Made by a program: the position numbers and the translations under genes
Shown here: positions 28,075 to 41,458 of the stretch, in pieces
Layout of the letters: each line of letters begins with the position of its first letter
Numbering within the stretch: the stretch's first letter is position 1
IMG/VR virus record: IMGVR_UViG_3300029305_002776
DNA from: a virus
Taxonomy: Duplodnaviria > Heunggongvirae > Uroviricota > Caudoviricetes
Length of the DNA: 64,000 nucleotides
Strand: one strand, 5' to 3'
Notes under the pieces: model-generated
Told to the model about the DNA's origin: nothing
Databases searched by the model: none
The model's input: only the letters and a program-made list of their open reading frames with translations

Positions 28075-29352
28075 TTATCCGCAGTAGTCGTGACTAATTA
28101 CACCACAATTATTGACTTCTCTACCACAATGCGGACAAATACCAATTCTGCCAATTGGAATGATTACATTATTATTTACTGCATTTCTCGGATAAAAGAA
28201 TCTACAACTACTAAAATGAATATAATCTTTGTAGTGATTTCCACTGCTAACAGTATTACCGCCTACCTCACGAGAAACCCATTTGTTTTCGTCAAGTGCC
28301 AACAGAGGGGTAAATTCCTTCTGAACAATCCCTCTAAAGAACTTATAAAGATCCGTGCAACCATCATTACCCTGCGGATAAATACGCCCCTGAACAAAGC
28401 ACTTTTCTTTATAATGGAACATATTTCTATACAGCTTTCCAGTCTCATGAATATCTCCATCAAGACTATCAAGCACATAAGTAACAATAGAGCTTTCGTC
28501 CAACATATAAGACATAGTTCCATTACAGTATCCACCGCCAAAGCTATTTGCCATATGCCGTCTATTTTGCTTATCAATAGTATGACAGCTTGCCCAGCTC
28601 TTGCCGAAACTCATGGTGAGATAGTCAAGAGGATTAAGGCTAATAATAAAATACAGCTCTCGCTTATTGCCAGAAACCATGTCGGCATACTTTGCAAATT
28701 CCTTGTTATATTTCTTCCACTTGTCCACGCCATAATGAGTACAAACCTTATTAAATGCACGACTAGTCTTCATACCAGAAACAAAATGAAGCTTCTTATC
28801 ATTGCTTTCCGTCATATCTTTCAGCAGAGTAGGAGAGCATGTGTTTTGGAACTTTCGCATAACGTTTTGAAAATCAGTGAGATTTTCTACAGATTCTACA
28901 GTTGCAAACGTTCCCATAGAAAACGATTTCATTTTTTCGGTCTGCAAAATATTTTCTGCCTTTGCTGCATCCTTCAGGTTAACCTTTTTATGACCAGTTT
29001 GAAAATAATCATTAAAAGTCTTGCCATCTTTGTCGTGATAGCTGAGAATACAATCATGAACGGCAGTATCGTTTGCAAACTTACTAACAAAAGAATACAC
29101 TTCGGAACCTACATTCTCTCTTTCAAACTGCTCTTTAGTAACAATCCTCATATCTCCCTTGTAGTTAGGAGAAGTTGCAATCAGATTAATCAGAGGAGAC
29201 TTGTTTTTAAAATACTCATCAAGCACAGCACAAACTCCATGCTCAGAATTTCTATGACCATATTTACGAAGAAGAGTCATCATATCATTAACAAGCTTGT
29301 CTGTATCACAAAAGTGTCCCCACTTGCTTTTAATGTAAGCTTTACTCAACAT
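28075..29352 (-). CDS. large conserved protein, paralog family with 39917..41458 (shared NPxDYLxMSxGxSWxSCH...GTxSYMLD...YPQxND...IVQK core, C-terminal CxxCG)
   Basis: about 35-40 percent identity over ~150 aa core with the second copy; invariant Cys/His suggests metal site. Confidence 0.55.
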   Translation of the reverse strand: MLSKAYIKSKWGHFCDTDKLVNDMMTLLRKYGHRNSEHGVCAVLDEYFKNKSPLINLIATSPNYKGDMRIVTKEQFERENVGSEVYSFVSKFANDTAVHDCILSYHDKDGKTFNDYFQTGHKKVNLKDAAKAENILQTEKMKSFSMGTFATVESVENLTDFQNVMRKFQNTCSPTLLKDMTESNDKKLHFVSGMKTSRAFNKVCTHYGVDKWKKYNKEFAKYADMVSGNKRELYFIISLNPLDYLTMSFGKSWASCHTIDKQNRRHMANSFGGGYCNGTMSYMLDESSIVTYVLDSLDGDIHETGKLYRNMFHYKEKCFVQGRIYPQGNDGCTDLYKFFRGIVQKEFTPLLALDENKWVSREVGGNTVSSGNHYKDYIHFSSCRFFYPRNAVNNNVIIPIGRIGICPHCGREVNNCGVISHDYCG

Positions 29353-29366
29353 AACAAAAACTCCTT

Positions 29367-38975: not shown

Positions 38976-39920
38976 TTAAAGCATGTAAAGATCAGGCCCA
39001 TAATCCTCAATATCAATGATGTCATTAACGCACAGTGTAGGATGATCTGTCATGAACATGCCGATTGCTTCAAGGTCACTATGTGCCATAAGTTCTTCAA
39101 AATCTTCCCCGCCTGCTTCGTCATTATAGAGAATCACATAGTAATTCTCCACATCTTCACTATACTCTTTCTTTCCGTAATAGCCGTCATAGTTGAAGCC
39201 ATTGTAGTGACCAAGGCCCTCGAAATCGAAAAAAGTTCTCTTTGCCTCAATGTACTCAAACTTATCAGTGCTCTTTGTCTTTTTAATCAGAGCACATGTC
39301 TTGGTAATGCAGTTTTCCATTTCCTTAATGTTTACATACTCTTCCAACGTATGAGCCTTATAATAACCACAGGAAAGATTAACCGCTGCACATTTTAGCT
39401 TCGGAGCAAGAATGGAAATATCAGAAAAACTTCCAAATGCAGTTTTCCACTCTCCAGTTTCTGTTATAAACTCTTCAAATTCAGGATTGTCACAGCTATA
39501 AAAAACTGCATCCTTATGACCACGGCGGTCAAGTTCAATCATGTAATTAAACTCAAGCCCACTAGAAACTGGATGTCTAATGAATTTTCCTGCACCAATG
39601 CCTCCGATTTCCTCATCCTCACAGAAAAGAACAGAGCAATGACACTTACGAATAATGTTTAGAATTGCATAAATTCCACATCTATCGTCTCCACCAATTC
39701 CCTGCGGAGAAGAAATCTTTCCGTCTTGATAAATAAACTGTCTCGGAGTTTCCTTATGAACAGTATCCATATGTGCAACAAGACAAATCGGAGTGGTTCC
39801 TTTTGCAAAAATGAAACCGTCATCAACTGTGATGTTGTTATAATAAGTAGCAAGCTGTGTTTTTAAAGTGCTTTTGAGTTCTTTTTGAGACATTTTACAC
39901 AATTTTTCAAAACTAATCAT
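38976..39920 (-). CDS. putative Zn-dependent peptidase (M20/M28/M42-like metal-ligand pattern)
   Basis: ordered H-x-D (LVAHMDTV), bridging D (GGDDRCG), EE (CEDEEIGG), later D/H consistent with co-catalytic zinc aminopeptidases. Confidence 0.35.
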   Translation of the reverse strand: MISFEKLCKMSQKELKSTLKTQLATYYNNITVDDGFIFAKGTTPICLVAHMDTVHKETPRQFIYQDGKISSPQGIGGDDRCGIYAILNIIRKCHCSVLFCEDEEIGGIGAGKFIRHPVSSGLEFNYMIELDRRGHKDAVFYSCDNPEFEEFITETGEWKTAFGSFSDISILAPKLKCAAVNLSCGYYKAHTLEEYVNIKEMENCITKTCALIKKTKSTDKFEYIEAKRTFFDFEGLGHYNGFNYDGYYGKKEYSEDVENYYVILYNDEAGGEDFEELMAHSDLEAIGMFMTDHPTLCVNDIIDIEDYGPDLYML

Positions 39921-41458
39921 ACTTTTTCCACCTCTTCCACTTCTTCTTTATGCTCTTCAAAGCATTCTTCACAATAAACAAAAACTTCGCCCGTTTCCTT
40001 ATCTGTACATTCCTTTATGTCTTCAATGCGGAAATATTCACCACAGTCTTCACAACGAGCATAGTCGTCAAGGCAATCGTCACAAACGAATTTATCTTCA
40101 CTGCAAACCCATGTAGTGTGATGATAATACTTTTCACAGCAGTCACAATAAGAGTAGCAATCATCCGCACACCCAGAACAAACATATATATCTCTATCTT
40201 CAATATATACTGTATCTTCGTTTGCATAATACTCCTGACAACTCTCACACCACGTGCAGCAATAAGAACAATAAGGGTCATCATCAACCCAATGAACATC
40301 GTCTTCGTCTAAGCCACAATCACAACATGTACAACTATATTCTTTATAACAACAAGAAATATTGTTTGCATAGCTATGATAAGAACCGCACTCAATACAA
40401 ATCGGCTCGGCACCAAGAATCATAGGTCTCAGACTATCGTTCTCTTTGCCCTTTACAATAGACATAGAGCACAAATCACCTTGACAATTCCAATCATCAT
40501 AACATGTAGCTCCATATCCACGTACCACATTGGTTACACGTCTCTTAATCCATAGATTAGGGACTTCAAGGCAGTCAGCAACAACTTTCTGTACGATATT
40601 TCTAATGTCTGTATAAACATCATTTGCACCGCAGTCATTGCTTTGCGGATAAAGACGAGACTGCATAAGCTGGAAATCATTATATCCAAAAACCTGTCGC
40701 TGAATTTTATGCTCACGCTCAATTTGGTCTCCATCATACTCTGCGTCTACTGTGTAGAAAATCAAGGAGTGTGCGTCAAGCATGTAGCTAATAGTTCCAG
40801 ACGAGTAACAACCAGCGTCGCTAGATTCGCTACCAATATAATGACAGCTACTCCACGAATTTCCATTAGACATCAGCAGATAATCTACAGGGTTAAGGCT
40901 AATGCATGTGTGTCGAGTTACCTTGATAGGAGAAAGTGCATCACAAAACTGTGCATATGCCGCATTAAAGCCTTCAAGCTTATCCCACTCATAAGCCTTA
41001 CAGATTTTGCCTACAACCTTTGTGGTCTTCATCCCAGGACGGAAGCGGAAGTTTTCATTGAGGCGATTAAGACTTTCTACGTAGTAATCTTCAGGCAAAT
41101 AGCTATACATAGCTGTACAGTAATATAGCTCAAAAAACAGAGAATGCCTTGCATCTCCGTCGTCGTTAAGCAAAATGATATAGTCCATATTTGTGTTCTT
41201 TCTTAGCCAACAAACAAAATTCCTTGCAGACAAGATGTCAAGTTCTCTTGAGAAGTCTTCATTAAACTGGATCATAAACTTTTCGCTATTCCAGTTAGGG
41301 TGCTTACTCAACAGGCTAAGAAGCATCTGCTTTCTTTCTGCCCATTTGTCAAAGATATCATCAATTGCATCATCGTCGTAGGCATAATCTCGATTTTCAA
41401 GCTCTGTTTTAAATTCATTTTTGATTTTTTCCAAGAAGTCTTCATTTACTTCATACAT
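39917..41458 (-). CDS. large conserved protein, paralog of 28075..29352, with ~170 aa hyper-Cys/Asp/Glu-rich C-terminal tail
   Basis: shared core motifs with paralog; tail CIECGSYHSY...CCYKEYSCTCCDCG...CSYCCTWCESC...CSGCADDCYSYCDCCEKYY...CDDC...CEDCG...CEEC. Confidence 0.55.
   Translation of the reverse strand: MYEVNEDFLEKIKNEFKTELENRDYAYDDDAIDDIFDKWAERKQMLLSLLSKHPNWNSEKFMIQFNEDFSRELDILSARNFVCWLRKNTNMDYIILLNDDGDARHSLFFELYYCTAMYSYLPEDYYVESLNRLNENFRFRPGMKTTKVVGKICKAYEWDKLEGFNAAYAQFCDALSPIKVTRHTCISLNPVDYLLMSNGNSWSSCHYIGSESSDAGCYSSGTISYMLDAHSLIFYTVDAEYDGDQIEREHKIQRQVFGYNDFQLMQSRLYPQSNDCGANDVYTDIRNIVQKVVADCLEVPNLWIKRRVTNVVRGYGATCYDDWNCQGDLCSMSIVKGKENDSLRPMILGAEPICIECGSYHSYANNISCCYKEYSCTCCDCGLDEDDVHWVDDDPYCSYCCTWCESCQEYYANEDTVYIEDRDIYVCSGCADDCYSYCDCCEKYYHHTTWVCSEDKFVCDDCLDDYARCEDCGEYFRIEDIKECTDKETGEVFVYCEECFEEHKEEVEEVEKV

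Follow-up and report, generated by a model that had tools for sequence, protein, structure and literature searches.

What kind of protein is encoded twice, by the genes p1 and p2, in IMG/VR virus record IMGVR_UViG_3300029305_002776 (Caudoviricetes)? The stretch of DNA analysed here, called the window, covers 64,000 nt and is part of a large phage. A first-pass annotation, made from the sequence alone, had described p1 and p2 as paralogues with a common core, which it could not assign to a family. Both open reading frames lie on the minus strand with the positions and lengths given there (Table 1). p1 and p2 share 40% identity over 182 aa (BLASTP, E = 3e-35), and on this sequence comparison they are real paralogues, as proposed. 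Two partner genes were overlooked in the annotation, a peptidase gene beside p2 and a gene for a 258-aa Zn-ribbon protein beside p1, and these genes define the unit. The core and the peptidase form a self-contained module, since the neighbourhood contains no other conserved family. We tentatively propose that p1 and p2, with their partner genes, represent two architectures of a single phage enzyme module that has not been described before.

The core family and its partner genes

An N-terminal helical domain and an α/β core of about 220 aa are common to p1 and p2. The shared core had been limited to about 150 aa; this is too short, as the N-terminal positions K51 and R78 (p1 numbering) also align. 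The sequence I-x-C-x-x-C-G closes both cores, in agreement with the annotation.

A word-indexed search returned 1,910 relatives of p1 and 742 of p2 (with full-length cover in the case of p2), all of them unnamed or 'hypothetical'. When 1.84 billion cluster representatives were searched exhaustively with a profile, 3,681 members (clusters at 50% identity) passed E ≤ 1e-3, and 988 of these also passed E ≤ 1e-30. Metagenome contigs from JGI and ENA, with lengths of 100.9 kb at most, encode the exact p1 and p2 proteins again, and relatives are found on contigs of 100–230 kb. Some of the labels of the metagenome-assembled genomes are Oscillospiraceae and Clostridia. By tblastn, the cultured or annotated carriers are one unannotated phage fragment and the Vescimonas fastidiosa plasmid pMM35_02, on which the relative is a 'hypothetical protein'. 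No near-identical GenBank phage was found for the region by megablast. This very large core family is, in essence, restricted to the phages of gut anaerobes and to their phage-plasmids.

No known family could be attached to the core by sequence, profile or structure searches, so that the earlier statement on this point holds. Neither p1 nor p2 matches Pfam at E ≤ 1, and neither has a match in NCBIfam or PADLOC. In 30 diverse core segments, no recurring Pfam family and no Pfam acetyltransferase was detected (E ≤ 1). A core-only profile found nothing in the PDB at E ≤ 10, and PDB sequence and profile searches with p1 and p2 gave generic zinc fingers only. The ten longest family members show zinc-ribbon matches only, and a 750-aa variant has no PDB match. 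The sole library match of p1 is PHROG 18912 (E = 1.9e-10 over residues 71–335), a family of unknown function that carries no annotation and that p2 does not match at E ≤ 0.01. Against the PADLOC defence models, p1, p2 and the 258-aa partner have no match and the peptidase matches at chance level only. A literature search on phage LIM/M20 modules returned nothing relevant. No defining feature of a known family could be established for the core, and the module is absent from all the libraries searched; the family and the module are therefore considered new.

The gene context was compared using loci from IMG/VR, GTDB genomes, PLSDB and metagenome contigs, in which the open reading frames were searched with profiles. 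Of 32 tail-bearing core genes, 27 have a peptidase homologue directly 3' and on the same strand, with an overlap or a gap of less than 30 nt. The pairing is kept down to about 25% identity, including V. fastidiosa pMM35_02. Tandem pairs are present in two loci, and the order is reversed in one. According to the clustering of neighbours, the core family is present at 29/29 loci and the peptidase at 25/29, and every other family at 9/29 or fewer. No third conserved neighbour was found beyond the clade of the window. In the window, the peptidase start overlaps the p2 stop (ATGA); thus, p2 and the peptidase are translationally coupled.

The peptidase matches Pfam M20 and M28, a PHROG peptidase family and the NCBIfam PepT-like family, with scores below the curated cut-offs (22.3 versus 24.6 bits for Pfam M20, and 39.6 versus 274 for NCBIfam PepT-like). 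The residues H50, D52, D78, E103, E104, D131, D137, D167, H190 and E194 are invariant in 27–28 homologues. The closest PDB entries in a profile search are the tripeptidases 3rza (E = 2e-10) and 3gb0 (E = 5e-9). The alignment to 3rza covers residues 86–186 and 340–390 only, and the lid/dimerisation domain is skipped. With all its metal ligands intact, the peptidase is predicted to be catalytically competent.

The tail-less variant has a different neighbour. A homologue of the 258-aa protein is located directly 5' of every tail-less core gene examined (9/9 independent loci, and also two loci that duplicate the window), and no tail-bearing core gene in the same locus set is preceded by one. The word-indexed search gave six homologues of this protein, all without domains, and no relatives were detected outside the tail-less context. 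It shows no similarity to the p2 tail and no PDB match. At the loci numbered L011, L017 and L039, the tail-less gene is also followed by a peptidase gene of its own; in the window's lineage it is not. Both variants occur together in at least five related genomes, as in the window. A side observation is that a Cys-rich GP88-family/DUF5131-like protein (CGGCCEGC) is encoded at 27050–27769 on the minus strand; its place shortly downstream of the tail-less paralogue is conserved within the clade of the window (L001, L034, L035, L036 and L037).

Invariant residues, zinc fingers and a possible mechanism

Conservation was calculated over 416 aligned family members and is given in p1 numbering. C256 is conserved in 100% and H257 in 97% of the sequences. 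S238, D243, S248, G250, W253, S255, G278, S281, D285, R309, Y325 and P326 are also conserved in 100%, and D330 in 97%. Conservation of at least 90% is observed for K51, R78, K195, D224, K306, Q321, R323, Y336, R340, W358, Y374 and D376. Altogether, some 25 polar residues reach a conservation of 97% or more, in sequences that are otherwise 25–50% identical. The motifs SWxSCH, GTxSYMLD and YPQxND, which had been called invariant, are present throughout the family, with variation at Q327, N329 and L284. A zinc knuckle, C406-x2-C409...[H/C]421-x2-C424, closes the core and is 95–98% conserved.

C256 and H257 might form a structural Cys3His site together with C204 and C383. Each of the latter two residues is 83% conserved; they are lost independently, with hydrophobic residues as substitutes, and C256 never changes. 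This independent loss argues against the Cys3His site, which was rejected, and favours a catalytic Cys–His pair over a structural metal site. The C256–H257 pair is, judged from the pattern of conservation, more likely catalytic than metal-binding. The conserved Cys and His residues had been taken to indicate a metal-dependent enzyme; this is correct for C406, C409, H421 and C424, which form a classic zinc knuckle, and probably not for C256–H257. The invariant set resembles an active site and the coupled metallopeptidase is conserved, and therefore the module is enzyme-like and not filler.

The residues around the Cys–His pair bear on the nature of the substrate. Seven invariant Lys/Arg residues and invariant aromatic residues surround it, as would fit a thiol enzyme modifying nucleotides or nucleic acids. 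In that case, the M20-like partner would serve the same pathway, of nucleotides or base hypermodification, as an amidohydrolase. Covalent Cys catalysis is used by thymidylate synthase, dCMP hydroxymethylase and the m5C/m5U methyltransferases. The segment strand-NPxDxxxM...SCH of the core resembles the active-site segment SAWNPxDxxxMAL(P)PCH of ThyA, with S-x-N-P-x-D-x-x-x-M followed by C-H and identical N-to-M spacing in thymidylate synthase and dCMP hydroxymethylase. The core, however, has a four-residue insertion before the Cys, and its later motifs are ordered differently. The predicted fold gave no backing for a ThyA-like active site, which was rejected, and no sequence or profile match to such enzymes was found. 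A DnaB-like helicase, an adenylosuccinate-synthetase homologue and a Sak4-like protein mark the surroundings of the module as a region of replication and nucleotide metabolism, and M20 enzymes include the non-peptide amidohydrolases ArgE and CPG2, both among the matches of the peptidase. A tail with a pI of 4.05 is unsuited to nucleic-acid binding. Weighing these points, we consider a nucleotide or nucleic-acid substrate unlikely.

The tail of p2 (residues 377–513) contains two arrays of CxxC pairs in addition to the shared knuckle. The first array is C-x2-C-x17-C-x2-C-x3-C-x2-C-x19-C-x2-C, and the second array is C-x2-C-x17-C-x2-C-x6-C-x2-C-x23-C-x2-C. The arrays are predicted to form two LIM-like double fingers with four Cys4 sites. 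The tail is modelled as ordered β-hairpins with a predicted local distance difference test (pLDDT) score above 90, and its structural matches are FYVE, rabphilin and LIM fingers. Pfam LIM is matched by 4 of 79 relatives (best E = 3.5e-7); the tail in the window reaches no Pfam threshold. Multi-CxxC tails are present in about 55% of the family members and absent from about 45%. Larger tails with 15–18 CxxC pairs and 50–54 Cys in proteins of 641–833 aa are encoded in L028 (15–1940) and L029 (2522–5023), and thus the number of finger modules is highly variable.

The first-pass annotation had proposed a metal-dependent enzyme with a Cys/Asp/Glu-rich tail that binds or sequesters metal in bulk. The content of Cys, Asp and Glu is high and, by prediction, the tail certainly binds zinc, so that the metal-binding part of the proposal stands. 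Sequestration does not fit. More than 35 Cys had been counted in about 170 residues, whereas the last 173 residues contain 27, the last 138 contain 23 and the whole protein contains 39. In metallothioneins, Cys makes up about 30% of the residues and is clustered as C-x-C, C-C and C-x-x-C; aromatic residues are few or absent, and there is no regular secondary structure without metal. In contrast, the last 173 residues of p2 contain 16% Cys, 17 Tyr and 3 Trp, and the cysteines form nine conserved CxxC pairs with LIM-like, regular spacers of 17–23 residues. Because of this spacing, the confident hairpins, the LIM matches, the low Cys content and the many aromatic residues, the idea of a metal sponge was dropped. 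According to the model, the tail is a structural zinc-finger array and not a metal sink. With about 45% of the family lacking a tail as well, bulk metal binding as the function of the protein is very unlikely.

The acidity of the tail is uniform in the tail-bearing subfamily (median pI 4.05, maximum 4.63). This would suit a non-catalytic adaptor or decoy, in which the core is a scaffold for the peptidase, the tail mimics protein or DNA to titrate a host defence factor, and Cys–His is structural or binds metal. A lid-less peptidase may need a partner, and the neighbours are of the early or anti-defence type, with AcrIIA9-family, YodL and PcfJ genes adjoining in Vescimonas pMM35_02. The polar conservation described above is, however, the pattern of an active site and not of a scaffold, and the basic, tail-less p1 (pI 8.7) keeps all the conserved polar residues. 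We give such an adaptor a low probability.

The explanation that we prefer, still tentatively and from sequence features, is a thiol-dependent transferase or amidase core that shares a peptide or protein substrate with the exopeptidase, the target being recruited by the fingers. C256 would be the nucleophile and form an acyl- or aminoacyl-enzyme, and H257 would serve as the base. The core would act on an amide or amine of the peptide or protein, and this substrate would also be trimmed or released by the exopeptidase, in the same complex or pathway. A further possibility is that the core takes the place of the PepT lid that the peptidase lacks. The zinc fingers would recruit the protein target, being fused to the core in the tail-bearing variant and supplied in trans for the tail-less variant. 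The likely target is a host protein, because the genes around the module are of the early, host-takeover and anti-defence types. A bolder version is that a core of new fold or superfamily and a lid-less PepT-like exopeptidase would constitute a widespread phage machine for host takeover or counter-defence, which would remodel protein N-termini or small peptide signals with LIM-like target recognition. An example, of the N-degron type, would be a trimming step and then the transfer of an acyl or aminoacyl group through the thiol. We presume that this version is improbable as it stands.

Several observations weigh against the thiol-transferase explanation. Five of the 32 core genes have no adjoining peptidase, some of them at contig ends, and six of the nine tail-less copies have no peptidase of their own. 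No core–peptidase fusion, which would have supported the putative physical association, was found among the 416 members. An adjacent Cys–His is not the geometry of a classical catalytic dyad. The seven invariant basic residues would fit a nucleotide or nucleic-acid substrate equally well. The CoA-binding motif A of GNAT enzymes is missing from the core.

Bacillota of the human and animal gut are the hosts of the large phages and phage-plasmids in which the thousands of members are found, and no database names the family. Solving the chemistry of the core would annotate recurrent dark matter of the gut virome, and may reveal a new phage route to modify host proteins or peptides. The family would also show how LIM-like zinc-finger arrays work outside eukaryotes. 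The plasmid pMM35_02 of V. fastidiosa MM35 is the cultured entry point.

Genome setting

The features of the two variants, and of the reverse-transcriptase system located between them, are listed in Table 1.

Table 1. Positions of the features in the window
Feature	Position	Strand	Remarks
Paralogue 1 (p1)	28075..29352	minus	425 aa, pI 8.7; no tail, no adjoining peptidase
p1 zinc knuckle	28081..28137	minus	C406, C409, H421, C424
p1 conserved core	28138..28785	minus	Residues 190–405; from alignments and AlphaFold2 (AF2) model
p1 Cys256–His257 codons	28582..28587	minus	From conservation in 416 sequences and translation
258-aa Zn-ribbon protein	29367..30143	minus	Directly 5' of p1; C52-x2-C55...C79-x2-C82; weak Zn_Ribbon_TF match
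Putative UG27 large accessory protein	33798–34742	minus	314 aa
Putative UG27 small accessory protein	34754–35239	minus	161 aa
UG27 reverse transcriptase	36328–37599	minus	Full-length; PADLOC RT_UG27, E = 1e-200; between p1 and p2
Lid-less PepT-like (M20B) dinuclear metallopeptidase (predicted)	38976..39920	minus	314 aa; start overlaps p2 stop (ATGA)
Paralogue 2 (p2)	39917..41458	minus	513 aa, pI 4.4; N-terminal helical domain, core, zinc knuckle, acidic zinc-finger tail
p2 acidic tail	39920..40330	minus	Residues 377–513; eight conserved CxxC pairs, four predicted Cys4 zinc sites
p2 zinc knuckle	40331..40399	minus	C354, C357, C369/C370, C376; common to whole family, conservation 95–98%; sequence CIECGSYHSYANNISCCYKEYSC
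p2 conserved α/β core	40400..41059	minus	Residues 134–353; from alignments and DSSP of model
p2 Cys205–His206 codons	40841..40846	minus	Candidate catalytic dyad; from conservation in 416 sequences and translation

The published UG27 system combines a reverse transcriptase with two accessory proteins, one small and one large, and with a variable array of non-coding RNA (PMC9226505; bioRxiv 10.64898/2026.09.22.753630). In the window, the gene-free segment 35238–36327 next to the reverse transcriptase gene contains about six diverged tandem repeats of 170–212 nt (about 172). The region 33798–37599 fits the published system and is separate from the core–peptidase module. The same layout is repeated in the relatives L003, L035 and L039. 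Targeting of p1 or p2 by the reverse transcriptase, in the manner of a diversity-generating retroelement, was rejected: no pair of template and variable repeats touches either gene, and the enzyme is UG27.

The window also encodes integrases, a sigma factor and a GP88-family protein, besides the replication and nucleotide-metabolism genes mentioned above. The adenylosuccinate-synthetase homologue (42467–43639, minus) is short (390 aa), divergent and far below the PurA cut-offs; it shows a weak, partial match to PurZ of the 2-aminoadenine pathway (E = 3.9e-8, 33 bits versus a cut-off of 300). A dense array of 17 tRNA genes is located at 2808–9536 on the minus strand, with a drum RNA (2808–2911). 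Adjoining the array, a 568-aa PHROG-850 'RNA-binding protein' is encoded at 7783–9489. Five copies of an intergenic element of about 66 nt with TTGTCAAGAGG (repeat family D1) are present at 9560–18411; a role before minus-strand genes, as a promoter or regulatory element specific to the phage, is possible. Two adjoining tyrosine-recombinase/integrase-like genes are located at 18933–20921 on the minus strand. The syntenic recombinase genes of L035 have MrpR_N_CB/MrpR_C_cat and Phage_integrase domains, and lie beside YorF/YorH-like genes of the SPbeta type.

In V. fastidiosa pMM35_02 (L005, 504–14174), the core–peptidase pair ends an operon that encodes a lambda-exonuclease, a RecD-like helicase, YodL-domain, AcrIIA9-family and PcfJ-domain proteins and LigA. 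In its layout, this operon is similar to an early or anti-defence region. pMM35_02, a linear 'plasmid' of 142 kb, is probably a phage-plasmid.

A relation of the core to PcfJ, raised by a faint BFVD match and by the adjoining PcfJ gene in Vescimonas, was also rejected. When the family alignment was compared by hhalign with the Vescimonas PcfJ protein (PF14284, Pfam E = 8e-40), the probability was 0.4% and the motifs were unrelated. A literature search on PcfJ returned only the pCFJ plasmids of C. elegans.

Comparison with known systems

The structures of p1 and p2 were predicted by AF2 with family alignments. The pLDDT and predicted template modelling (pTM) scores are 92.9 and 0.81 for p1, and 92.8 and 0.71 for p2. 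When a viral structure library was searched, nothing but further uncharacterised phage proteins matched significantly. Confident as they are, neither of the two models yields a solved relative.

The order of the secondary-structure elements in both predicted cores is β-α-α-β-β-β-α-β-α-β-β, which is the GNAT order; the GNAT topology is a mixed sheet β1-α1-α2-β2-β3-β4-α3-β5-α4-β6. The closest systems are the GNAT-fold N-acyltransferases (NatD/Naa40, 4u9w; HAT1, 1bob; RimI/J/L) and the GNAT-like ATE1 (8tzv), with identities of only 3–10%. On this basis the core might be a canonical acetyl-CoA-dependent GNAT N-acetyltransferase coupled with an ArgE-like M20 deacylase, as would fit the weak acetylornithine-deacetylase matches of the peptidase. 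GNAT motif A is a pyrophosphate-binding loop, Q/R-x-x-G-x-G/A, between β4 and α3. The loop in its place reads Y-P-Q-G-N-D-G, Y-P-Q-S-N-D-C-G-A or Y-P-S-W-T-D, in which only Y325, P326 and D330 are kept, and residues 329–332 of p1 have a pLDDT below 50. In the case of p2, the GNAT matches are not reproduced. A profile match to GNAT is lacking, in line with the absence of Pfam acetyltransferases from the 30 core segments. The invariant Cys–His in the α1–α2 loop, the helical N-domain of about 190 aa and the C-terminal zinc knuckle are features unlike GNAT. A canonical GNAT enzyme is thus quite improbable. Because motif A is missing and the matches are not repeated with p2, 'GNAT-like' is treated as a lead and not as an assignment; a more sensitive fold comparison could demote the core to a divergent GNAT-like enzyme. 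The probability that remains after the thiol-dependent transferase or amidase and its four rivals belongs to something else.

The LIM pattern (PF00412) is C-x2-C-x16-23-[HC]-x2-C-x2-C-x2-C-x16-21-C-x2-[CHD]. Compared with LIM, FYVE and rabphilin fingers, the ligands of the p2 tail are all Cys, and the linkers between the fingers are 3 and 6 residues, not 2. To our knowledge, LIM domains are essentially eukaryotic, whereas the p2 tail is phage-encoded and strongly acidic.

The peptidase is best compared with Peptidase T and the M20B enzymes (3rza, 3gb0 and 1fno). It keeps all the co-catalytic ligands and the catalytic Glu (HxD, GGDD, EE, D and H), and these residues line up with the motifs of 3rza. 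Unlike Peptidase T, it has no lid/dimerisation domain, it carries an acidic C-terminal extension of about 90 aa, and it is always encoded beside the core family.

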